NCBI GenBank assembly: GCA_041394245.1
Contig: JAWKIR010000002.1
Span: forward strand, 2,858,970 to 2,922,969
DNA length: 64,000 bases
Reading direction: 5' to 3'
Origin: Acidimicrobiales bacterium
Lineage (GTDB): Bacteria; Actinomycetota; Acidimicrobiia; Acidimicrobiales; Aldehydirespiratoraceae
Shown: in pieces, positions 1-59,771 of the stretch
How the letters are laid out: every line of letters starts with the position of its first letter
How positions within the stretch are numbered: position 1 is the first letter of the stretch
Program-made: the position numbers and the translations under genes
The notes under the pieces: model-generated
The model's database searches: none
The model's input: only the letters and a program-made list of their open reading frames with translations
Told to the model about the DNA's origin: nothing

Positions 1-1318
1 CGAGGGCGTCGTCGTGGTCGCGGTCGACGCCGATCTCGTCGCACAGACGACGGATCGTGGCGGGGCCGACACCCTCCAGGGATGCGAGGACGCGATGCCA
101 GGCCAGCTGGTCGGCCGGATTGTCGAGGATGCGCAGGAGCGCCAGCAGATCTTTGACGTGGGCCGACTCGAGGTACTTCAGTCCGCCGTATTTCACATAG
201 GGGATGTCGCGTCGGGTGAGTTCGAGTTCGAGGCCGTCGGCGTGGTGGCCGGCCCGGAAGAGCACGGCCTGTTGGCGGAGATCGATCCCCCGCTCGCGGG
301 CGTCGAGCACGGCGGTCGCGACGGCGGCGCTCTGGGCACCCTCGTCGTGATGGGTCTTCAGCTTGGGGGTGAGGCCGTGCGGACGGGACGACCAGAGCTG
401 CTTCGCGTAGTGCTCGTCGCTCTGGGACAGCACGGCGTTGGCGACGGCCAGGATCGGCATGGTCGATCGATAGTTCTGTTCGAGGGTCACCCGCGTGGCG
501 CCGGGAAACTGCTCGGCGAAGTTCCACATGTTGGCCACGGTCGCCGCCCGGAACCCGTAGATGGCCTGGGCATCGTCGCCGACGGCGCACAGGTCGGTGT
601 CGGGGCGGCACATCCCCCGGACGATGTCGGCCTGGATCGGGTTGGTGTCCTGGTACTCGTCGATGAGGACGTGGTCGAAGAGATCCCGCATCGCGTCGCC
701 GACTCCGCTGACCGTGAGCCCACGCCAGAAGAGCAGCAGGTCGTCGTAGTCGAGCACCTGATGGCTGCGCTTGCGAGCGGTGTAGGCGGTGAAGATCGTC
801 CGCAGGTCGTCGGCGTGATCGGCGCACCAGGGGTAGTCGCGCTCGAGCACCTCGCCGAGCTTCGCCTGGCTGCTGACCATGCGCGAGTAGACGCCGGCGA
901 TGGTCTCCTTGCGGGGGAACCGCTTGCCCCGCTCCCCGAATCCCTCGTCGGTACGCACGATGCCCATCAGCTCGGTGGCGTCGGACTGGTCGAGCACGGT
1001 GAATCCGGGTGACAGCCCGGCGCTCTGTCCGAAGTTGCGCAGGAGTCGGTTGGCCGTGGAGTGGAAGGTGCCACCCCAGACCCGGGAGGCGGCCCGGTCG
1101 GTCGACACCGCCGCCACCCGGGCAAGCATCTCGCTCGCGGCACGTCGGGTGAACGTGAGCAGGAGGATCCGGCTCGGGTCGGCGCCGTCGTCGATGATCC
1201 GACAGACCCGGGCTGCGAGGGTCTTGGTCTTGCCGGTACCCGCGCCGGCGACGATGAGCAAGGGGGAGCCGGTGTGGTCGACGGCGGCCTGCTGCTGTGG
1301 GTTCAGCGAATCGAACAT
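1..1318 (-). CDS. UvrD/PcrA-family ATP-dependent DNA helicase, N-terminal part (3' end runs off the window)
   Basis: Absent from the ORF track because no stop lies in the window. Reverse translation from ATG at 1318 gives MFDSLNPQQQAAVDHTGSPLLIVAGAGTGKTKTLAARV (Walker A), then LIDEYQDTN. Plus-strand ORFs 14..1012 and 900..1928 are its shadows. Confidence 0.85.
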   Translation of the reverse strand, partial: MFDSLNPQQQAAVDHTGSPLLIVAGAGTGKTKTLAARVCRIIDDGADPSRILLLTFTRRAASEMLARVAAVSTDRAASRVWGGTFHSTANRLLRNFGQSAGLSPGFTVLDQSDATELMGIVRTDEGFGERGKRFPRKETIAGVYSRMVSSQAKLGEVLERDYPWCADHADDLRTIFTAYTARKRSHQVLDYDDLLLFWRGLTVSGVGDAMRDLFDHVLIDEYQDTNPIQADIVRGMCRPDTDLCAVGDDAQAIYGFRAATVANMWNFAEQFPGATRVTLEQNYRSTMPILAVANAVLSQSDEHYAKQLWSSRPHGLTPKLKTHHDEGAQSAAVATAVLDARERGIDLRQQAVLFRAGHHADGLELELTRRDIPYVKYGGLKYLESAHVKDLLALLRILDNPADQLAWHRVLASLEGVGPATIRRLCDEIGVDRDHDDAL

Positions 1319-42571: not shown

Positions 42572-45500
42572 ATGGTTGCACGGGTCAGGATTCTGATCGT
42601 TCTCGCGGTGTTGGCCGCCGGAATGGGAACCGCGAGCGGGGCATCAGCCCAAAGTGACGGCGAGGTCCCGGCCGGCGATCCGCCGATCGTCGATGGGCTG
42701 CTGGACTCGGCGCTTCGCGACCTCGTCGCCAATGCCGGATCCTCGCGCTCCACGTCCGCGGGGACCGTGCTCGTCGAGGCGCATTACAACGTGGGGTCGG
42801 CTCAGGCCCGTGCCCTGGTCGAGGGCGCCGGTGGTGTGATCACCGGTGAGGTTCCCGGCTGGCTCATCGAGGCCTCGGTGCCGGTGGGCAACCTCGAAGC
42901 CCTCGAGGCGGAGGCCGGGATCGACTTCCTGCGTCTGCCCGGGGCCAGCTCCCCGATCTTCGACCCGCCGTCACCCGAACCCGGGCCGGGCCAGGCGGTC
43001 AGCGGCCAGCACGTGGTCGAATCGAACGCCGACGACTGGCACGCGGCCGGATACGACGGCGCCGGCATCAAGGTCGGCATCATCGACTTGTTCAACCTTC
43101 CCGACTGGAACAACGCCGTCGCGAGTGGGGATCTTCCGGCTGTCAGCGGCACCTTCTGTCGGTGGTCGGGTTCGTCCTGCAACGTCTGGAGTGTGTTCGC
43201 GACCGTGGCAACACACGGCAACAACGTGGCCGAGATCATCCACGACATGGCGCCTTCTGCGGAGCTCTACATCGCGTCGGTGTCGACAGCATCCGACTTC
43301 CAGGCCGCGGTCGACTGGTTCGACAGCAACGATGTCGACATCATCAGCCAGTCGCAGACGAACCGGTACGACGGTCCTGGCGACGGCACCGGACCGTTCG
43401 GCTCGGTCGTCGACGATGCCGTCTCCAAGGGGATGGCCTGGTTCAATGCAGCCGGCAACAACAGCGGCACCACGGGCAACGGCTCCTACTGGCGAGGCAC
43501 CTGGACCGACACCGACAACGACGGCTGGATGAACTTCAACGGCGGCGACGAGGACCTGCAGTTCTGGGCCACGTTCCAGAACGGCGTCCGATGGGACGAC
43601 TGGGGCGAAGCCGGCGTCACCGACTTCAACATCTGCGTCTACAGCAACCCGAATGCGGTCGGACTGCGCGGTTGCAGCTCGAACAGCCAGGTTGGTGGTG
43701 CCGACCCGCTGGAGGTCGTGACGAATCTGGCCTATCAAAGCTCGGCCAATTACCTCCGCATCCAGCTCGTTGACCCAGGTGCCGGCGCCGGCACCGACAC
43801 CATCGAGTTCATGCAGAACGGCGGCGGGGTCGAAGCCTCGTCCAATCCGGGCAACGCCGGAGGACCCTTCTCCGACTCGGCCAACGCCGGGGCGATGTCG
43901 ATCGGTGCGATCGATCCGGCCACCGGGAACAACATCGCCGGCTACAGCTCCTGGGGTCCGACCAACGACTTTCGCACGAAGCCGGACATGGCGGGACAGG
44001 CGTGCCTCACGACGAGCCTCACACCCTGCTTCGACGGGACCAGCTCGGCGACGCCGGTCGTTGCCGGCGCCGCTGCCCTGATCCTGCAGAGCCGGCGGAC
44101 CACCACGCCCGCCGGTGTCGTGTCGTATCTTCGCAACCAGTCGACGGTCGATCGCGGTGCAGCCGGGGTCGACAACATCTACGGCTGGGGTGAGCTTCTC
44201 CTGCCCGCGCCCTGCGCGATCGACACCCACGAAGACAACGACACACAGGCGACCGCCACCTCGATGGCCAACGGCACGGTGCTTTCCGCCTCGGTCTGCG
44301 TGGGCGACCCGGACTGGTATTCGTTGCGGGTCACCGAAGGTCAGGACATCTCGGTCGATCTGACCTTCGATCACGCCAACGGTGATGTCGACGTCAAACT
44401 CTTCGATCCGTCCGGCCAGCTCGTCGGCTCGTCGACGTCTGGCTCCAGCAACGAGAGCATCACACACACGGCCCTCGCGAGCGGTCTCTACGCCGCTCAG
44501 GTCTACGGCTTCGGTGGGGCGGAGAACACCTATCAGATCGACATGCATCGTTCGATCTGTCCGGTCGACGATGCGTTCGAGGTCAACAACTCGCAGGCGA
44601 CCGCAACGCCGCTCACCGATGGCGTGTCCGTTTCGGCCATCGCCTGCGACATCGCGGGCCCGACCGCCTACGACGTCGATTGGTACTCGTTGCCGGTGCA
44701 GGCCGGCGACACGGTCACTGCGACGGCCGAGTTCATCCACGACGGCGGCGACTTGACTGCGATTCTCTATGACCCGTCGGGTCTGACGCAGCTCGGTATC
44801 GGGACCTCGACGACCGACAACGAGGTCGTCGCCAGTGTCGCCGAGGAGGACGGGGCGTACGCGGTCCTCGTCTTCGGCGCCGGCAACGAGGAGAACGAGT
44901 ACACGATGACGATGTCGGCGAGTTGTGTCGATGACGCGTTGGAGGACAACGACACCCGGTCGACGGCGACGGCATTGGCGAACGGGTCGTCGCAGAGCGG
45001 GGTGCAGTGTCCGGCTGATGATGACTGGTTCTCTCTCGATGTGGCGGCTGGCCTCGATGTCACAGTCGATCTCGCGTTCGTGGATGCCTACGGCGATCTC
45101 GATGTGCGGTTGTTCGATCCGTCGGGGTCCGAGGTTGCCTCGGCGACTTCGGGAACCGACAACGAGTCGATCGTGCACACGGCGCTGTCGGACGGCACGT
45201 ACACCGCTCGGGTGTATGGCTATCTGGGGGCGCAGAACGTCTATGACATCACGATGTCGAAGTCGATCTGTCCGGGCGACGACACGATGGAACCCAACAA
45301 CACGCAGGCGACTGCGACACCGTTGGGGAGTGGCGTGACGCAGGCGGCGATCGCGTGTGACGTCGACTGGTACTCGATTCCGGTGGTGGCCGGCGAGACG
45401 GTCAGCGCCGATGTCGAGTTCGCTGATGCGGCGGGCGATCTCAGCATCGCGTTGTACAACCCTTCGGGTTCGACGCAGGTGTCGAACAGCGTGTCCACGA

Positions 45501-46354
45501 CCGACAACGAGTCGTTGAGTCATGTGGCGACCGAGACCGGCGACTACGGCCTGGTCGTCTTCGGGGCGGGCGGGGCCCAGAACGTGTACGACGTGACATT
45601 GTCGACGGTGTGCACCGATGACGGGTTCGAGGAGAACGACACCCGGGCGACGGCGACGCCGCTGTCCAATGACGTGGCCGTAGCCGGGCGTGTGTGTTCC
45701 GGTGACGATGACTGGTTCTCGATCCCGGCCGTGTCGGGTCAACTGGTGACGGCAGTGGTCGATTTCGTCCATGCCGACGGTGACCTCGACATCAGCTTGG
45801 TCGACCCGGCCGGGACCGAGGTGGAGTTCTCGACATCGACGAGCGATGGCGAGGCGATCACGTGGACGGCGGCGTCTTCAGGGACCTACAGCTTGGTGGT
45901 GTTCGGCTACAACGGAGCGGCGAACGACTACACCGTGTCGATGAAAGCAGGAGCACATCCGCGGGTTCGTCCGTTCGGTGCGGTGGCGAACCCGGAGGGC
46001 GACACGGGATCACAGATCGCGGATCTGTACCTGTACCTCGAGGATGCGTCAGGTCAACCGTACGCGTCGCCCACACCAGTGACGGTGTCGTGGACCACGC
46101 TCGATATTCCGAGCAATCCGCTGGTCGCGCATCCGGGTGAGGATTTCGTGGCGGCGTCGGGGGTGGCGACGTTCTTGCCGGGGGAGACGATCACGACGGT
46201 GCCGGTGGAGGTGTTGGGTGACACGGTCGACGAGCCGCCGCTGCTCTATGGCGAGTGGGGCTTGTGGACGGTGAGCAACCCGTCGTTGAACGCAAAGATC
46301 GACACAACGACCTTCTTCGGAATCGGCCTGCTGATCATCATCGACGACGACTGA
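42572..46354 (+). CDS. Secreted S8 subtilisin-like protease with 5 PPC (pre-peptidase C-terminal) repeats and a Calx-beta-like C-terminus
   Basis: Signal peptide. Catalytic GIKVGIIDLF (D), THGNNVAEI (H), GTSSATPVVAGAAAL (S). Five C..D..E.N(D/N)..ATA...DWYS repeats. C-terminal GEDFVAASG..F.PGE...V.V.GD.V.E. Confidence 0.9.
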   Translation: MVARVRILIVLAVLAAGMGTASGASAQSDGEVPAGDPPIVDGLLDSALRDLVANAGSSRSTSAGTVLVEAHYNVGSAQARALVEGAGGVITGEVPGWLIEASVPVGNLEALEAEAGIDFLRLPGASSPIFDPPSPEPGPGQAVSGQHVVESNADDWHAAGYDGAGIKVGIIDLFNLPDWNNAVASGDLPAVSGTFCRWSGSSCNVWSVFATVATHGNNVAEIIHDMAPSAELYIASVSTASDFQAAVDWFDSNDVDIISQSQTNRYDGPGDGTGPFGSVVDDAVSKGMAWFNAAGNNSGTTGNGSYWRGTWTDTDNDGWMNFNGGDEDLQFWATFQNGVRWDDWGEAGVTDFNICVYSNPNAVGLRGCSSNSQVGGADPLEVVTNLAYQSSANYLRIQLVDPGAGAGTDTIEFMQNGGGVEASSNPGNAGGPFSDSANAGAMSIGAIDPATGNNIAGYSSWGPTNDFRTKPDMAGQACLTTSLTPCFDGTSSATPVVAGAAALILQSRRTTTPAGVVSYLRNQSTVDRGAAGVDNIYGWGELLLPAPCAIDTHEDNDTQATATSMANGTVLSASVCVGDPDWYSLRVTEGQDISVDLTFDHANGDVDVKLFDPSGQLVGSSTSGSSNESITHTALASGLYAAQVYGFGGAENTYQIDMHRSICPVDDAFEVNNSQATATPLTDGVSVSAIACDIAGPTAYDVDWYSLPVQAGDTVTATAEFIHDGGDLTAILYDPSGLTQLGIGTSTTDNEVVASVAEEDGAYAVLVFGAGNEENEYTMTMSASCVDDALEDNDTRSTATALANGSSQSGVQCPADDDWFSLDVAAGLDVTVDLAFVDAYGDLDVRLFDPSGSEVASATSGTDNESIVHTALSDGTYTARVYGYLGAQNVYDITMSKSICPGDDTMEPNNTQATATPLGSGVTQAAIACDVDWYSIPVVAGETVSADVEFADAAGDLSIALYNPSGSTQVSNSVSTTDNESLSHVATETGDYGLVVFGAGGAQNVYDVTLSTVCTDDGFEENDTRATATPLSNDVAVAGRVCSGDDDWFSIPAVSGQLVTAVVDFVHADGDLDISLVDPAGTEVEFSTSTSDGEAITWTAASSGTYSLVVFGYNGAANDYTVSMKAGAHPRVRPFGAVANPEGDTGSQIADLYLYLEDASGQPYASPTPVTVSWTTLDIPSNPLVAHPGEDFVAASGVATFLPGETITTVPVEVLGDTVDEPPLLYGEWGLWTVSNPSLNAKIDTTTFFGIGLLIIIDDD
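44213..45945 (+). repeat. Five tandem ~345-bp coding repeats (PPC domains) inside the protease gene
   Basis: Repeat-initial Cys codons lie at 44213, 44558, 44924, 45269 and 45611, all in frame. Confidence 0.8.
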
Positions 46355-47830: not shown

Positions 47831-47854
47831 TAGGAGGTGGGGAAGGACGTGGCA

Positions 47855-48652
47855 ATGCTCGATTTCGACCGACAATCCGTGGAGATCGGCGAGGGCCGTC
47901 TCGCCAAGCTGCGCCGCTTCAACCTGGTGATGGGTCTGGTCCATCTCGTGTCCGGTGCGCTGATGGTGGTGCTCGGCAACGACTTCGAGCTGGAGATCAG
48001 CTCGTTCAGCCTGGGCGGCCCCCCGGGCACCCCGCTCGCCGACGGCACCCTCGATTCGGTGATCGGCGTTCCACTCGCGTGGGCGACCGCGTCGTTCCTC
48101 TTCCTGTCGGCCTTCTTCCATTTCGTGATCGCCACCGTCGGGTTCCGTGCCTACGGCTCGGAGCTCCGCCACGGGCGCAACCGGTTCCGCTGGGTCGAGT
48201 ATGCGCTGTCGTCGACGCTGATGATCGTGTTGATCGCGCTCGTCACCGGCATCACCGATCTGGCCGCGCTCATCGCGATCGCGTTCGTGAACGCCTCGAT
48301 GATCCTCTTCGGCTGGATCATGGAGATGGTCAACGACGCCGACCGCCCGGTCTGGTGGACGCCCTTCTGGTTCGGGTCGATCGCCGGGATCGGTCCGTGG
48401 GTCGCCATCGCGACCTATCTCGTGGTCAACCTCAGCCGTGAAGGCGCCGAGGGTCCCCCCGGCTTCGTCTACGGGATCATCGTCACGATCTTCGTGCTGT
48501 TCAACATCTTCGCCATCAACCAATGGCTGCAGTACCGCAGGGTCGGCCGTTGGGCCGACTACGTCTACGGCGAGACCGCCTACATCGTGCTCAGCCTCGT
48601 GGCGAAGAGTGTCCTGGCATGGCAGATCTTCGTCAACACGCTGATCGATTGA
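47855..48652 (+). CDS. Heliorhodopsin
   Basis: Near-colinear motif match to recalled HeR 48C12: RFN..MG..H, GGPPGT, FFHFVI, FRWVEYALSS (counterion Glu), VNASMILFGW, PFWFGSIAGI.PW, PGFVYGII, YIVLSLVAKSVLAWQIF (Schiff-base Lys). Alternative GTG starts at 47837 and 47849. Confidence 0.9.
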   Translation: MLDFDRQSVEIGEGRLAKLRRFNLVMGLVHLVSGALMVVLGNDFELEISSFSLGGPPGTPLADGTLDSVIGVPLAWATASFLFLSAFFHFVIATVGFRAYGSELRHGRNRFRWVEYALSSTLMIVLIALVTGITDLAALIAIAFVNASMILFGWIMEMVNDADRPVWWTPFWFGSIAGIGPWVAIATYLVVNLSREGAEGPPGFVYGIIVTIFVLFNIFAINQWLQYRRVGRWADYVYGETAYIVLSLVAKSVLAWQIFVNTLID

Positions 48653-53724: not shown

Positions 53725-54213
53725 TCAGCCGAGTGCGCCCGACGCGAGCAGTGAGGTGATCGTCCCTGCGACGAACACGGCGAGCATCACCGCCATCGTG
53801 GCGGCACCGATGGTGACGGCGCGGCCGAGGTCGCTCATGTGGCCCCCGAGGACGTCGATCCGTTCGCCGATGCTGTCCATTCGCATGCTCAGGCTGTCCA
53901 TGCGCGAACTGAGCGATGCCCCCTGTGCGGCGACGAGTCGGGTGAGCTCCTGCAGGTCGCTCGAGGTCTGATCAGCCCGCAGCGTCAAGGCTTCGATGCG
54001 TCCCTCGACCCCGCCGATGCGTCCCTCGACGCCGCCGAGTCGGTCCTCGACGCCGCCGAGTCGGCGGTCGAGCAGCGCGATGTCGTCCTTGGTGGCGAGC
54101 TGCGTCCACGGGATCGGCGGCATGGACTCCATCATGGCATCCGCAGCGCTCTCGTCCATCAGTTCGATGAGGTACTGGCGGATACGAAGGCGGGTGTTCT
54201 CGTCGACGGGCAT
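53725..54213 (-). CDS. Tail-anchored coiled-coil protein, paralogue A (DUF1640/XhlA-like)
   Basis: MPVDENTRLRIRQYLIELMDESAADAMMESMPPIPWTQLATKDDIALLD, GGVExRL heptads, C-terminal TM. RBS AGGAGGGG. Confidence 0.7.
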   Translation of the reverse strand: MPVDENTRLRIRQYLIELMDESAADAMMESMPPIPWTQLATKDDIALLDRRLGGVEDRLGGVEGRIGGVEGRIEALTLRADQTSSDLQELTRLVAAQGASLSSRMDSLSMRMDSIGERIDVLGGHMSDLGRAVTIGAATMAVMLAVFVAGTITSLLASGALG

Positions 54214-54279
54214 CGGCCCCTCCTGGTTCGAGAGTTGGAGGGGAAGTCCGTGTCGTGACCCTAGGACGAGTGTGTGACA
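54214..54279 (-). promoter_or_regulatory. Conserved upstream module A: TGTCACA palindrome, 8 nt, TAGGGT -10, anti-SD/SD hairpin
   Basis: Minus strand reads TGTCACAC-N8-TAGGGT...CTTCCCCTCC-13 nt-GGAGGGGccgATG. Arms at 54237-54243 and 54217-54223. Confidence 0.5.
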
Positions 54280-54420
54280 GAAGGTCGTGGTGGTGAATGC
54301 GATCCCCGGAAAACGCCGGTTGGCGGTGTGCGGGTGCGCTCGCATCGGTGATGGCCCTGCCATGTTGAAGTCGACGTACTCCGCCGCAGCGTCGTCGCAC
54401 GCGTCGAGTCTGCTGCTGCA

Positions 54421-54528
54421 CTCAGCCGCGTCTCGGCTGTGCCGCGAAGTCGCTGAGTCGTTGCATGACGGCATTGCTCTCGTCGTCGAAGACGCCTCCG
54501 TAGACCCCGAGGATCAGCGCCGGGTTCG
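54421..54528. repeat. Left copy of a 108-bp direct repeat (70 bp perfect), equal to the integrase 3' end
   Basis: 54459-54528 is identical to 58319-58388. 54421-54432 is identical to 58281-58292. Constant offset of 3,860 bp. Confidence 0.9.
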
Positions 54529-55375
54529 AGTGGCCGGCCCACTTGGCCGCGGCACGGGGCGACGCCAGCGAGCGGCTCCACATCGCGACGCACGTGTGGC
54601 GGAGATCGTGGATCCGGAGGCCGTCGAGCCCGGCGGCTTCGGTGGCCGGTTTCCAGATGCGTCGCCGGAAGTTGGCGTCGCCGAGCGGCTTGCCGTTCGG
54701 TGAGGTCCAGATCAGCTCGTCGGGTTCGACGCCGCGGCTCGCCATGTCGATGACGAGCTCTTCCATCACGAAGCTCGGGACGGGGACCGTCCGGCGCCCG
54801 GCCCGTGACTTCGGTGGGCCGAAGGTCGGTGTGCCGTCGCGGCTGAGGGTACGCGTTTCGGTGACGTCGATCGTGGTGGTCGCCGCGTGGACTCGCTTGG
54901 CCCGGAGGGCTGCGAGCTCGCCGTTGCGGAGACCGGCGTAGGCGCCGACGAGCACGAAGGTGCGATACGGCGCGGCGATCGCATCGGCGAGGCGTTCGAC
55001 CTCCGCGGGTTCGAGGAACGTCGGCTCCTTGTGGGGCACTTGGGGGAGCGAGAGCCCCCGCGTCGGGTTGTGTTCGAGCAACCGGGACCGCACGGCGATG
55101 TCGAGGCTCTGGGCGAGCAACCCGGCGGCCTTGCGCACAGTGCGGGGGGACAGGTCGGTCGCCGCGAGCTCGGCGACGAAACGCTGGGCGTCGCGAAACC
55201 CGATCCGGTCGATCGCCACGTCGCCGAAGAACGGCTCGAGATGACACCGGAAGATCGATTCGTCGCGCAGACGGGTCGAGGGTCGGACACCGACCCTCGT
55301 CGAGATGAATTCGGCCCACCAGTCGCGAAACGACGGCGCGGGTTCCGCAGGGAGGCCCAGCGATGGCGCGTCCAC
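54422..55375 (-). CDS. Tyrosine recombinase / phage-type integrase
   Basis: GTG at 55375. SAM-like N-terminal domain, AYAGLRNGEL (R), HDLRHTCVAMW (HxxR), GHSNPALILGVYGGVF (Y). Confidence 0.9.
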   Translation of the reverse strand: MDAPSLGLPAEPAPSFRDWWAEFISTRVGVRPSTRLRDESIFRCHLEPFFGDVAIDRIGFRDAQRFVAELAATDLSPRTVRKAAGLLAQSLDIAVRSRLLEHNPTRGLSLPQVPHKEPTFLEPAEVERLADAIAAPYRTFVLVGAYAGLRNGELAALRAKRVHAATTTIDVTETRTLSRDGTPTFGPPKSRAGRRTVPVPSFVMEELVIDMASRGVEPDELIWTSPNGKPLGDANFRRRIWKPATEAAGLDGLRIHDLRHTCVAMWSRSLASPRAAAKWAGHSNPALILGVYGGVFDDESNAVMQRLSDFAAQPRRG

Positions 55376-55389
55376 GGGTCTGGCGCAGT

Positions 55390-55608
55390 TCAGGCGAGGG
55401 TGGTGGCCAGCACCGCGACGACGCCGACGATCCGCGTCATCATGGCGATGACGATCATGCCCGTCGTCTCGGCGCACCGCACTGGCAGCAGCCCTTCGAG
55501 CAGCGCCATCTCGCCGGAGAAGTTGTGGATCTGGGGGTCGATGCGTTTCGTTCCTGCGTCGGAGAGGCGCCGGTGGAGGCGGAGGCGTACTGGTTCGTCG
55601 ACGGACAT
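55390..55608 (-). CDS. Short paralogue D of the tail-anchored family (72 aa), 14 nt upstream of the integrase
   Basis: MSVDEPVRLRLHRRL... and a C-terminal TM (MIVIAMMTRIVGVVAVLATTL). Lacks the coiled-coil middle. Confidence 0.5.
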   Translation of the reverse strand: MSVDEPVRLRLHRRLSDAGTKRIDPQIHNFSGEMALLEGLLPVRCAETTGMIVIAMMTRIVGVVAVLATTLA

Positions 55609-55671
55609 GGGTTCCCTCGGATCGGAGTGCAAGGAGGGAAGTGACGGCGAACCTACGCGTCGGGTGTGACA
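55609..55671 (-). promoter_or_regulatory. Conserved upstream module D
   Basis: TGTCACAC-N8-TAGGTT...CTTCCCTCC-15 nt-GAGGGAAcccATG. Arms at 55634-55640 and 55612-55618. Confidence 0.45.
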
Positions 55672-55726
55672 GTCCTGCGCCGACGGGATGCCGGCTCGCT
55701 CGGTCCGTGGATCCCCGAGGTGAGTG

Positions 55727-56260
55727 TCAGAGATTGAGCAGACCCACGGCCACGCCGGTGACGGCGAGGAACAACGTGATCATGGCGAACACGAGGATCC
55801 GGGTGGTCTCCATCCATCGCAACGACAGCCGCCCCTCCATCGCGAGGAGTTGCCCCTCGAAGACCGAGCGGCTGCCGTCGAGCTGCGCGCCGAACCCTTC
55901 GAGCTTCGCGCCGACCCCCTCGAGCTGGGCATCGACGGTGTCGAAGCGCCGGTCCATGGCGTTGAACCGTTGGTCGACGTCGTCGAACCGTCGGTCGACG
56001 ATGTCGAGGCGCCGGTCGACGGTGTCGAGGCGCCGGTCGACGGTGTCGAGGCGCCGGTCGACGTTGTCGAGGCGCCGGTCGACGTTGTTGAATCGTTGGT
56101 CGACATCGTTGAACCGCAGGAGCATCTCGTCGCGGCGAGCGATCTCCGACCAGTCGAACGGCGGCATGGATTCGAGTATGGCATACGCCACCTCGGGTTC
56201 GAGCTCGTGATCGATCAGCCATTGGCGGAAACGGAGGCGAGCGTCCTGCTCAGGGGTCAT
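55727..56260 (-). CDS. Tail-anchored coiled-coil protein, paralogue C
   Basis: MTPEQDARLRFRQWLIDHELEPEVAYAILESMPPFDWSEIARRDEM, about nine VDRRLDx heptads, C-terminal TM. Confidence 0.7.
   Translation of the reverse strand: MTPEQDARLRFRQWLIDHELEPEVAYAILESMPPFDWSEIARRDEMLLRFNDVDQRFNNVDRRLDNVDRRLDTVDRRLDTVDRRLDIVDRRFDDVDQRFNAMDRRFDTVDAQLEGVGAKLEGFGAQLDGSRSVFEGQLLAMEGRLSLRWMETTRILVFAMITLFLAVTGVAVGLLNL
55931..56119 (-). repeat. Nine tandem 21-bp in-frame repeats (heptad repeat VDRRLDx)
   Basis: gtcgacggtgtcgaggcgccg-type units. Units at 56015-56035 and 56036-56056 are identical. Confidence 0.9.
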
Positions 56261-56319
56261 GGGTCCTCCCGGATGGGGTGGGAGGGGAAGTGGACCCACC
56301 GTACGCGCCCGGTGTGACA
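56261..56319 (-). promoter_or_regulatory. Conserved upstream module C
   Basis: TGTCACAC-N8-TACGGT...CCCCTCCC-9 nt-GGGAGGAcccATG. Arms at 56280-56285 and 56265-56270. Confidence 0.45.
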
Positions 56320-56593
56320 CTGGGGGCCGGTCCTCGCGTCGAGCGGTTCTTTGAGAACGCGTCGTCTCGACCGGCCAACAGATACAGAACGCGCCGCCGT
56401 TGGTGGGGAAGAGCGGGATCCAACAGCGCGGGAACCCGATCGCGACGCCGGCGAGCACGCGTGCGATCCACGACCAGTGGCGAGCCGAGCTGGAAGGAGG
56501 CTGAAATCGGTTGGTCGCGTTCGAAGCTGCACCGGTTGCACCCCACTGAGGGGAGCCCAGGAGAATTCATCGAAGCCGGTGTCTCCAGTGTGA

Positions 56594-57001
56594 TCAGGAG
56601 CTGGTCGCGAGGACGCTGACGATGAACACCGCAATGGTGATCGCGAGGGTGGCGGCGCCGATCGTGACCGCCCGGCCGAGGTCGGTCATGTGGTTGCCCA
56701 ACGCGTCGATCCGGCCGCCGATGCCGTCCATGCGCGTGCCCAACGAGGTGCCCTGCTGGGCGACGGCCCTGGTGAGCTCCTGCAGATCGCTCGACGTCTG
56801 GTCCATCCGCGCCGTCAGCGAGTCGAGGCGGTGCTCGACGCCGCCCAAGCGTGTGTCGAGCGCGGCGATGTCGTCCTTCGTGGCGAGTTGCGTCCACGGG
56901 ATCGGTGGCATGGACTCCATCATGGCATCCGCGGCGGCTTCGTCCATCAGCTCGATCAGGTACTGGCGGATACGAAGTCGGGTGTTCTCGTCGGCGGGCA
57001 T
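56594..57001 (-). CDS. Tail-anchored coiled-coil protein, paralogue B
   Basis: MPADENTRLRIRQYLIELMDEAAADAMMESMPPIPWTQLATKDDIAALD is nearly identical to the N-terminus of A. C-terminal TM. Confidence 0.7.
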   Translation of the reverse strand: MPADENTRLRIRQYLIELMDEAAADAMMESMPPIPWTQLATKDDIAALDTRLGGVEHRLDSLTARMDQTSSDLQELTRAVAQQGTSLGTRMDGIGGRIDALGNHMTDLGRAVTIGAATLAITIAVFIVSVLATSS

Positions 57002-57064
57002 CGGCCCCTCCTTGGTCGACGTGTTGGAGGGGAAGTGGGCGCACGCTACGGCGCGGCTGTGACA
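57002..57064 (-). promoter_or_regulatory. Conserved upstream module B
   Basis: TGTCACAG-N8-TAGCGT...CTTCCCCTCC-14 nt-GGAGGGGccgATG. Arms at 57026-57032 and 57005-57011. Confidence 0.5.
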
Positions 57065-57089
57065 GTCGACATCGCTCTCGCGCCGTCAT

Positions 57090-58232
57090 TCATGAAGCAA
57101 GCGGTCGACGAGCTGCCAGGTCGGCCCGGTTGGCCGCCGCGACGCCGGCGCCGTAGCCCGACCCGTCGAATGTGGCGTGAGACGGGCGCAGGCGCGAGAG
57201 GGAAGGGAAGACCTCGTCCACCATGCGGTCGACCGCAGCCGCGCGGCTGGCGAGGACGGGGAGGAGTGGTCCGTCGGCCGCGGTGGTAGCGGCGGCCCGC
57301 TCGGTGGCCCGTGCGTTCTCCGCGGACAGGCGCTCGTCGATTCGTCCTGCGAATCCGATCAGGAATGAACGCCGAAAGGCGCGCGTCGTCGACTTGCCGT
57401 AGCCGTCGGTGGTCGATCCGTGGCGCAGCATGGCCCGGGACGCCTGAACCAGCAGCGAGGTGAACAGGAGTTCGGTCGCTTCGAGGTCGATGGTGTAGCC
57501 GATGACCGTGGCCAACCCGAGGCCACTGTGGCGAATGGCCGTCGCCCGATTCGACCGCGCGATCACGCTGAGTAGCCCGAACTTCTCACGGTCGTAGGGC
57601 CGCTCGACGGCCAGCCGGATCGCGTCGGGGCCCGTGTGCGGCCCGGAGCCGGCGGCGCTGCGCAACGCGTCGGCGAGCGAGTGATCGGTGATGAGCGCCT
57701 GGGCCTTGGCGGTGAACGCCTCGGCTTCTGCCTCGAACGCACTCGACTCGGCCTTGGCCAGCATGGCGCGCACCTTCCTCAGGATGTCGTGGTCCAACGC
57801 TCCGCCCGTTGCGGGCGACGCATCGCCAACGGAACGTGGCGCCGACGCATCGGCCTCGCCAGGGAGGGGTCCCAGCTGCCGCAGCCCGGGCAGGAAGGCC
57901 AGTCGAGACCACAGTTCGAGTCGGTCGGTACGCCAGCCCCGATGGCGGGACTCCACGGCTTCGTCATCGTCGCCCGCCACATTTCGGACGTGGTTGATCT
58001 GCACCTGCCACCGGGGCGAGAGTCGATCGCCGTAGCCCTGAACCTCGTGTTCGCGCAGGATCAGCGTGGCAGCGAGGCGCAGGGCGGTCGGGGTGAGGTC
58101 ATGGTCGACCATCGCCAACAGATCGCCCGGCATCCAGCCGATCTGCCAGGCGTAGGTGATGAGCGCGACGAGGCCGGCATCGAGTTCGTCGGGATCTTCG
58201 GGTGGGCGGTGTGGTGTGAAGTGGTTCGGCAT
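57090..58232 (-). CDS. DUF2786-domain protein
   Basis: ATG at 58232 with GAGAGGGTGGA upstream. ILRKVRAMLAKAESSAFEAEAEAFTAKAQALI is the recalled DUF2786 signature. TGTGACA palindrome at 58254-58260. Confidence 0.7.
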   Translation of the reverse strand: MPNHFTPHRPPEDPDELDAGLVALITYAWQIGWMPGDLLAMVDHDLTPTALRLAATLILREHEVQGYGDRLSPRWQVQINHVRNVAGDDDEAVESRHRGWRTDRLELWSRLAFLPGLRQLGPLPGEADASAPRSVGDASPATGGALDHDILRKVRAMLAKAESSAFEAEAEAFTAKAQALITDHSLADALRSAAGSGPHTGPDAIRLAVERPYDREKFGLLSVIARSNRATAIRHSGLGLATVIGYTIDLEATELLFTSLLVQASRAMLRHGSTTDGYGKSTTRAFRRSFLIGFAGRIDERLSAENARATERAAATTAADGPLLPVLASRAAAVDRMVDEVFPSLSRLRPSHATFDGSGYGAGVAAANRADLAARRPLAS

Positions 58233-58281
58233 GCGTCCACCCTCTCGCGCCGGTGTGACACGGCTGAGCGGCTTCGTCAAC

Positions 58282-58388
58282 TCAGCCGCGTCGCGGGGGT
58301 GACGCGTAGTCGCTGAGCCGTTGCATGACGGCATTGCTCTCGTCGTCGAAGACGCCTCCGTAGACCCCGAGGATCAGCGCCGGGTTCG
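58282..58388 (-). pseudogene. Orphan 3' fragment of an integrase gene (right copy of the direct repeat)
   Basis: Encodes ...NPALILGVYGGVFDDESNAVMQRLSDYASPPRRG*, matching the last ~35 codons of the intact integrase. No upstream integrase sequence. Confidence 0.75.
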
Positions 58389-58464
58389 CCGCAACACCGC
58401 CGCGCCGATTGATCCAGCCGTAGCATCCTGCTACAGTCGTATCAGTCCAGTACAGGAGATTCTG

Positions 58465-58842
58465 ATGGCGAAGGGTGCCTCGACCCCCACCCGAGTGAAC
58501 GCGGACGTTGCGGCGGCTGCTGCCGCGGTGGCGCCCGCCGAGAACCGGACGACAGCTGAGCAGATCAACTACTGGGTCAGGCTCGGCATGCAAGTCGAGC
58601 GGGCGGCGTCCGCCACCAGCCGACGTGTGCTGGCCGTCGTCGCCGGTGACGCCCAGTTCTCGACCCTCGACCCGCACGACCGAACAGCCGCCCACGCGTC
58701 GATCGATGCCCGGATGGCGGAGCGTGTGGCCGACCAGCGATTCGGGCCCGCCGCGCGCAAGGCGGGTCGCGTGACGGTGTCGATCGACGACGACGGCGCA
58801 CTCGTCGAGATCGCGCCGGACGGTACTCGTCGGCTCCTGTGA
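58465..58842 (+). CDS. ParD-like type II antitoxin
   Basis: AGGAG 7 nt upstream. AENRTTAEQINYWVRLGMQVE matches the recalled ParD_like motif. Confidence 0.7.
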   Translation: MAKGASTPTRVNADVAAAAAAVAPAENRTTAEQINYWVRLGMQVERAASATSRRVLAVVAGDAQFSTLDPHDRTAAHASIDARMAERVADQRFGPAARKAGRVTVSIDDDGALVEIAPDGTRRLL

Positions 58843-59408
58843 GCCGTCTCGATCTGATTGCAGGACCGAACGGCGCAGGAAAGTCCACGCTCTACGAGCG
58901 AGTGATCGCCCCTGACCGGCCTGGTCTGCCCTTCGTCAACGCAGACCGCATCGCACGCGAGCGATTCCCGGGCGCGGAAACAACGGAGGCCTACAAGGCT
59001 GCGGAGATCGCCGCAAAGGCGCGGGAAGCGCTCATCGCCGCCCGCCTCGACTTCTGCACCGAAACCGTGTTCTCGCATGAGTCGAAGGTCGACCTGGTCG
59101 CGAGCGCTTCTTCATCTGGCTACGACGTCGTCTTGCACGTGGTCATGATCCCTCTCCGTCTGTCTGGGCCCCGAGTCGCCGCTCGTGTCGCCAACGGAGG
59201 ACACGGCGTACCGGCCGAAAAGCTCGAGACGCGGTACGAGCGCCTCTGGCCGCTTGTCGTGGCCGCAGTGCCGCTGTGCCATCGTGCGGTGTTCTACGAC
59301 AACTCCGCAGACGCGGGCCCGCTCGAGGTCGGCTCCTACCGCTACGGCGTCCCCGACTACGAACCTCGGTGGCCCGCGTGGTCCCCGGATCCAGTCCGAA
59401 CACTCTGA
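58839..59408 (+). CDS. Zeta-toxin / COG4185-type P-loop kinase toxin
   Basis: GTGA overlap with the antitoxin. LIAGPNGAGKSTL Walker A. 189 aa. Confidence 0.75.
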   Translation: MSRLDLIAGPNGAGKSTLYERVIAPDRPGLPFVNADRIARERFPGAETTEAYKAAEIAAKAREALIAARLDFCTETVFSHESKVDLVASASSSGYDVVLHVVMIPLRLSGPRVAARVANGGHGVPAEKLETRYERLWPLVVAAVPLCHRAVFYDNSADAGPLEVGSYRYGVPDYEPRWPAWSPDPVRTL

Positions 59409-59771
59409 GCTCTCCGTACGACGGACTCGTCTCCCGCCGGAGTGAGAGTCGACTGCATCTCGTCGTGAGAAGGGGTCGCATGCGCTTCGGGTTTCCGCGA
59501 CTTCCCAACTCGGCGTGTCACACGCTCTCTCTCGTTTCGGGAATCACTGACGAGAGGAGACGTGATGAAGGTGCTGGTGGCACCTGAAGATTGGTGATCT
59601 CGCCGATGCACTGACCGACTCGCTCGAACGTGGCGGCTGGTTGCAGGGAAGTAGCGAGAACGAAACGGTGGCGATGGTGGGCGAGCTCCTGACGGTGCTC
59701 GTGAACATCACGGAGCCGGCCGAGCCGGGGTCAGTTGTTCGCCGGAATGGCGACCTGGCGTATGTCAGATG

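Follow-up and report, generated by a model that had tools for sequence, protein, structure and literature searches.

Putative RecA-NDp/PafBC-type promoters upstream of an integrase operon and neighbouring genes in a genomic island of an Acidimicrobiales bacterium

The transcriptional activator PafBC, which according to the literature occurs in almost all Actinobacteria, acts at bipartite promoters that lack a -35 element. In vivo, the mycobacterial consensus is tGTCgg(N10)tA(N3)T, of which the 3' part is the -10 element of SigA and the 5' part, spanning -23 to -28, is termed the '-26 element' (PMC8635444). This motif, described as non-palindromic (PMC8635444, PMC6789036), is equivalent to the promoter known earlier as RecA-NDp (PMC6789036, PMC8223512), and its GTC triplet is strictly conserved in the recA promoters of Actinomycetes (PMC8635444). 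The triplet is read by the helix-turn-helix (HTH) of PafB alone, with the HTH of PafC contacting sigma-factor domain 4, an arrangement named 'sigma adaptation', and PafBC is activated by single-stranded DNA (PMC8635444). Documented targets include recA and uvrC, which are co-regulated with the SOS response (PMC8223512). The present analysis concerns an element with the core TGTCACA that recurs within a genomic island of an Acidimicrobiales bacterium, in a stretch of 64,000 nt (positions 2,858,970 to 2,922,969 of the forward strand of contig JAWKIR010000002.1, assembly GCA_041394245.1), the whole of which is here called the window. Five copies, upstream of genes designated A to E, probably constitute hybrid promoters of the RecA-NDp/PafBC class, judging by their sequences; as such, the island adds an example to a known promoter class and does not define a new one.

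The five sites lie on the reverse strand, each combining an upstream element with a downstream hexamer at a fixed distance. Those of genes A, B and C consist of TGTCACAC-actcgtcc-TAGGGT (54258-54279), TGTCACAC-ccgacgcg-TAGGTT (55650-55671), which probably serves an integrase gene as well, and TGTCACAC-cgggcgcg-TACGGT (56298-56319), respectively. Gene D has the slightly different TGTCACAG-ccgcgccg-TAGCGT (57043-57064), and gene E is preceded by TGTCACAC-cggcgcga-GAGGGT (58239-58260), followed after 6 nt by the ATG, such that its transcript would be leaderless. Hence the -10 box is of the canonical SigA type, TAnnnT, in genes A to D, with that of gene E departing from it at the first position. 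The original prediction had listed six copies of a TGT-N-ACA palindrome, all of which were located: TGTGACA on the forward strand at 54273, 55665, 56313, 57058 and 58254, and TGTCACA at 59516. It had also placed the TANNNT boxes exactly 8 nt beyond the palindrome, a distance that needs correcting, as 9 nt separate the 7-mer from TAGGGT, TAGGTT, TACGGT or TAGCGT, and 8 nt is obtained solely when counting from the conserved 8-mer TGTCACA(C/G).

The constraint on this arrangement was assessed by aligning 28 sites, comprising the five in the window and 23 from related loci. The spacing of the 6-mer, N10 and tA(N3)T, giving a total length of 22 nt, is exact in all five window sites and in 23/23 of those from related loci. 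Within the upstream element, T0 is conserved in 25/28 sites and G1, T2 and C3 in 28/28 each, followed by A4 (26/28), C5 (27/28), A6 (28/28), c7 (23/28) and C8 (27/28); in the -10 box, (T/C)16 is variable, and both A17 and T21 are found in all 28. The upstream element, situated at about -28 to -21 with GTC as its core, would correspond to the -26 element. No -35 is conserved, in agreement with what had been noted earlier, as information is approximately zero 5' of the T of TGTC in the alignment. A scan of the island region for sigma-70-type promoters gave 0 matches, and a scan of the same region for intrinsic terminators likewise gave none. The suggestion that the element overlaps the spacer and -35 region as an operator or a class II activator site stands in so far as it concerns a cis-regulatory site downstream of the -35 position and upstream of the -10, at about -28 to -22; of the two roles offered, that of an activator substituting for the -35 contact fits best. 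That the TGTCACA element is a real cis-regulatory site is supported by these sequence patterns.

Genes A to D are paralogous, with long stretches of near-identity between A and D (repeats D2-D4, D6 and D9), from which it might be supposed that the repeats are leftovers of gene duplication, copied along with the genes and devoid of regulatory meaning. Alignment of the five upstream regions makes this highly improbable: similarity starts precisely at the T of TGTC, such that the resemblance between the regions upstream of A to D ends exactly there, the two boxes are invariant while the spacers between them differ, and the motif also precedes unrelated genes, including gene E, a DUF4262 gene and others. 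On this sequence evidence the motif is functional, and no mere relic of duplication.

The upstream heptamer is literally identical to the -35 heptamer of promoters recognised by ECF41-type sigma factors, for which the consensus is TGTCACA-n16-CGTC (PMC3426412). However, CGTC was found at n15-n17 in 0/28 sites, the conserved partner being instead a SigA-type TAnnnT at n9, and neither an ECF41 sigma gene nor the usual target genes lie beside the sites, so that this assignment can be given practically no credence. Other configurations were rejected by inspection only: there is no conserved hexamer where one would be needed were GTCACA a -35 with a 17-nt spacer, and neither the sigma-54 pattern (TGGCAC-N5-TTGC) nor that of CRP/FNR (TGTGA-N6-TCACA) fits. 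The LexA SOS box (CGAAC-N4-GTTCG) is absent from the promoters of genes A to E, the single perfect box of the window lying elsewhere. This actinobacterial SOS box, CGAACATGCGTTCG at 1312-1325, coincides in part with the start codon of a gene for a UvrD-type helicase (2-1318, reverse strand), which suggests that a classical LexA regulon exists in the host too.

The 7-mer is formally palindromic and its copies cluster in the island, features on which the original prediction had based a single island-wide dimeric regulator, encoded by or specific to the island, for which TGT-N-ACA would be the operator or class II site. Against such symmetric recognition, conservation across the 28 sites is asymmetric, with TGTCACAcC extending in the 3' direction (cC) and nothing conserved on the 5' side. 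Similarly, the natural variants CGTCACA, TGTCTCA, TGTCGCA and TGTCATA each have one half altered with no compensating change in the other.

Over the full 64 kb the bare 7-mer is not enriched, with seven copies observed against an expectation of 5.0 +/- 2.2. It is clustered: an interval of 5.25 kb, for which approximately 0.4 copies would be expected, contains six of the seven; a Poisson estimate by hand puts this at about 4e-6, without correction for the choice of interval and with copies that are not independent, since A to D are paralogous. The composite TGTCAC-N10-TAnnnT has four matches in the window against 0.06 expected, a number reached in 0/100 shuffles. The seventh copy, missing from the earlier list, is a TGTCACA on the forward strand at 45058-45064, inside an open reading frame (ORF) of 1260 aa (42572-46354); with GCGTTC in the -10 slot it has no -10 partner, and it is likely a chance occurrence that does not look functional. 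As for the sixth, the fifth copy having proved, as proposed, to lie upstream of the DUF2786 gene (E) with GAGGGT at equal spacing, the TGTCACA at 59516-59522 (forward strand) is indeed present approximately 300 nt upstream of vapB, as had been described, but TCGTTT stands where a -10 is expected. Because the A at the second position of the -10 is invariant in the 28 real sites, this copy fails the pattern, does not look functional by its sequence and was excluded from the promoter type. It lies within GCGTGTCACACGC, at 59509-59521, a perfect palindrome of 13 nt in the interval that separates vapB from the zeta-toxin gene. Such a palindrome speaks for a dimeric regulator, but this palindromic site is one without a -10.

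The breadth of the promoter type became apparent from metagenomic contigs scanned for exact matches to TGTCACACCC-N5-GTAnnnT, for which all counts refer to the matches listed. At least 88 matches occur in contigs of at least 58% G+C, at least 75 of them with an ORF of 60 aa or more starting within 130 nt, and at least 37 of these 75 ORFs begin 5-8 nt past the -10. A start codon of such an ORF 5-8 nt after the -10 was found for 36/80 motif matches, compared to 30/269 for the remaining GTAnnnT hexamers of these contigs. In 2/101 matches, TTG occupies the -35 position. When the 75 downstream proteins were scanned with Pfam, the families represented included RecA (at least seven; L142, L144, L189, L198, L204, L223 and L240, best E 1e-143), RmuC (at least four), DUF222 with HNH (at least three), UvrC (at least two; L170 and L231), RadA (at least one; L179) and DnaX (at least one; L184), as well as GyrB, exonucleases and DndB. 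These downstream repair genes indicate that the element is a DNA-damage promoter type and not an operator private to the island, and since recA, uvrC, radA, rmuC and other genes of DNA metabolism are preceded by it in unrelated high-GC contigs, and many viral contigs have it too, the factor recognising it is probably host-wide.

The same conclusion emerges from the search for a regulator gene. The scanned parts of the window yielded none, in keeping with the earlier remark that no obvious HTH gene is visible there, and no WYL domain was detected among the window proteins scanned. Similarly, among 106 neighbour proteins of 17 related loci, neither WYL nor any other regulator family recurs, the recurrent families being the integrase (six members) and Fic/DOC (three). 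As no WYL protein is present in the scanned window proteins or recurs near related loci, the gene for the factor is presumed to lie at another place on the host chromosome. Part of the island extends beyond the window, which leaves room for an island-encoded dimeric regulator; nevertheless, the occurrence of the same 10-mer promoter at recA, uvrC, radA and rmuC elsewhere, the asymmetric conservation and the lack of a recurrent regulator at the 17 loci tell against that proposal, which is now distinctly unlikely.

Recognition of the five sites by a host activator of the PafBC type is also consistent with their conservation in the related loci, which derive from other, mostly Acidimicrobiales, genome bins. 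In all 17 the motif is retained upstream of homologues of A to D, with unrelated sequence on its 5' side. The motif is not confined to this family: a DUF2786 homologue of gene E in L004 has the same leaderless layout, with a -10 of CAGCAT, the ATG 6 nt further on and a different spacer; a DUF4262 gene in L001 is preceded by the motif and is leaderless; and in L015 it is found upstream of two further genes outside the A-D family. The order of motif, family gene and integrase on a single strand is shared by the window (gene B) and L002, L003, L005, L010 and L013, with gaps of 12 to approximately 360 nt, and the integrase family is found alongside the A-D family in 7/18 loci. One locus, L008 (contig CAXMSE010000027.1), is labelled 'uncultured Gammaproteobacteria' and carries an A-D family gene and promoter like those of the Acidimicrobiales bins; the label is probably a binning or labelling error. 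In L014, at position 2634 on the reverse strand, a canonical mycobacterial-type TGTCGGTG-N8-TACAGT is followed after 6 nt by the ATG of a gene of 81 aa, which would be leaderless, and as this contig also has a TGTCACAC site, both versions coexist in one genome.

Viral contigs (L018-L137) were scanned with the pattern CTGTCACACCC-N6-TAnnnT, counts again being those among the matches listed. The motif is common in these uncultured viral contigs, where it matches the TGTCACACCC-type 10-mer promoter and is often leaderless, for example in L027 (588-1819), L033, L025 and L047. Many of the matches resemble promoters, and genes for recombination nucleases often lie downstream. Some contigs have multiple copies, L027 having three in 1.9 kb. 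The proteins encoded downstream include PD-(D/E)XK nucleases (at least nine), YqaJ (at least two), Mu Gam, DNA methylases and DUF3263. A search of the viral contigs against cultured phage genomes matched no relatives.

Several observations weigh against assignment of the sites to the RecA-NDp/PafBC class. The 'gg' that follows GTC in the mycobacterial consensus is not present, these positions being AC in 26-27 of the 28 sites; in M. smegmatis itself, the 'gg' positions are at most 50% conserved (PMC8635444). Gene E has GAGGGT in place of TAnnnT. The published alignments of recA promoters are limited to the class Actinomycetes and do not include Acidimicrobiia, and the contigs in which recA bears the motif are metagenomic, with no taxon attached, and do not belong to the genome of the window. 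Lastly, in 12 of the 75 unique viral contexts listed, mostly of mid-range G+C content, a TTGACA-like -35 directly adjoins the element, one base upstream, which is a poor fit to a strictly activator-dependent promoter.

The divergence after GTC also lends something to the idea that another adaptor acting at -26, either a SiwR-like WYL protein or one specific to TGTCACAC, runs a DNA-damage regulon beside or instead of PafBC. SiwR provides a precedent, as a second WYL activator requiring the -26 region (PMC10693628), and the TGTCGGTG-N8-TACAGT site that shares contig L014 with a TGTCACAC site could mean that there are two specificities. By contrast, recA, the hallmark target of PafBC, bears the TGTCACAC version in at least seven contigs, conservation at the variable positions is weak in M. 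smegmatis too, and the 19-bp imperfect palindrome that SiwR recognises, spanning -10 to -35, is not seen here. A different adaptor thus appears rather unlikely, and PafBC itself is retained as the probable activator.

By analogy with the mycobacterial system, RNA polymerase carrying the housekeeping sigma factor would not suffice for transcription from such promoters. PafBC, the WYL-domain activator of the host, switched on by the single-stranded DNA arising from DNA damage, would insert between sigma domain 4 and the DNA with one HTH on the GTC. The host DNA-damage signal would in this manner govern five transcription units of the island, namely those of A to D and E, as well as the integrase through the promoter of gene B. 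Transcripts of A to D are predicted to start approximately 7 nt past the -10, at ACUUCCCCUC, with that of gene E leaderless. Through co-transcription of the integrase from a damage promoter, recombination of the element would be tied to DNA damage, and the island genes are probably turned on along with the host's DNA-repair response.

The genes under these promoters are arranged on the reverse strand. Gene A (53725-54213) encodes a protein of 162 aa, paralogous to the products of B (55390-55608), a short member of the family at 72 aa, C (55727-56260; 177 aa) and D (56594-57001; 135 aa). In this family a conserved N-terminal region of approximately 50 aa precedes a variable RxDxxxx coiled coil, and the C-terminus is formed by a transmembrane helix; the model of protein D consists of two short helices followed by a single long one ending in the transmembrane segment. 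Within gene C, 21-nt tandem repeats (56000-56111) encode the coiled-coil heptad DRRLDxV, and the number of coiled-coil repeats differs widely across the family (135-190 aa). Gene E (57090-58232) encodes a DUF2786 and DUF7168 protein matching phrog_421; a literature search on DUF2786 turned up nothing relevant. The tyrosine integrase gene (54422-55375) begins 14 nt beyond the gene B stop codon. It lacks a separate promoter motif and is therefore probably transcribed together with gene B, from the promoter of that gene.

Gene E is followed by toxin-antitoxin pairs, a ParD-like/zeta pair and VapBC. A 109-nt direct repeat, with copies at 54420-54528 and 58280-58388 that are 94% identical, flanks the integrase together with genes B to E, a span of 3.86 kb. 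In its second copy, a piece of the 3' end of the integrase gene is duplicated; the two copies could represent att-like ends or a scar left by tandem elements. Further away, a heliorhodopsin gene is found at 47837-48652 on the forward strand (Pfam E = 9e-97).

Genes A to D have leaders, located at 54214-54257 (A), 55609-55649 (B), 56261-56297 (C) and 57002-57042 (D) on the reverse strand. Near the start of the A-D family leaders is a conserved box, (C)ACUUCCCCUC, also present in L001-L015. In gene A, pairing between the leader box CUUCCCCUCC and the Shine-Dalgarno sequence GGAGGGG is predicted, and the leaders of B, C and D are similar; in single-sequence folds the box pairs with GGAGGGG/GAGGGA, with a mean z of about -1.5. 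On these predictions, the leader box CUUCCCCUC is a candidate Shine-Dalgarno sequestering element that may add translational control. RNAalifold found no structure in a MAFFT alignment of the leaders that was out of register, and none of the known RNA families reached threshold in them. The leaders of recA carry the box in some contigs only, and the hairpin is not consistently common to them.

What had been an unexplained repeated 'palindrome' can thus be read as a recognisable regulatory signal, one from which DNA-damage regulons may be read in the genomes of uncultured Acidimicrobiia. If the assignment is true, the 'sigma adaptation' promoter class of PafBC reaches beyond the class Actinomycetes. 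It is tentatively proposed, as something close to an even question, that actinobacterial mobile elements and phages have captured the host's PafBC -26 promoter, gaining a link to DNA damage or to the entry of single-stranded DNA that depends on neither a repressor nor LexA. This suggests that actinobacterial integrative elements and phages sense DNA damage by a host activator site and not by a cleavable repressor; were it so, mitomycin C or ultraviolet irradiation should lead to GTC-dependent induction of the gene B-integrase operon and to excision of the element. A search of the literature on PafBC in connection with prophages or integrases found no title or abstract on such promoters in mobile elements or phages.

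The closest described systems are the PafBC promoters themselves, with which the island sites share the 22-nt bipartite layout, an invariant GTC at approximately -27 to -25, 10 nt between the 6-mer and TAnnnT, the absence of a -35 and frequent leaderless starts, in addition to the recA, uvrC, radA and 13E12-like DUF222-HNH genes found downstream in metagenomic contigs. They differ in that ACAC(C) follows GTC here, rather than GG(TG), and in that the host is an Acidimicrobiales bin, of a class outside the published alignments. The driven genes also differ, being the integrase operon, the DUF2786 gene and the tail-anchored coiled-coil family of the island. Similarly, the SiwR promoter (msmeg_1357-56) has an activator site between -10 and -35, a response to genotoxic stress and a housekeeping sigma factor; however, SiwR binds a 19-bp imperfect palindrome, serves adjacent dinB-like genes only and is encoded next to its target, whereas here no WYL gene is adjacent and the motif is spread across many gene families. 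With ECF41 promoters the heptamer TGTCACA is identical, the downstream element being CGTC at n16 there and TAnnnT at n9 here. Lastly, the LexA-dependent SOS induction of prophages and integrative elements would be alike in coupling mobile-element genes to damage of the host DNA, but in the island this coupling would be direct, via a host activator site and without cleavage of a repressor.

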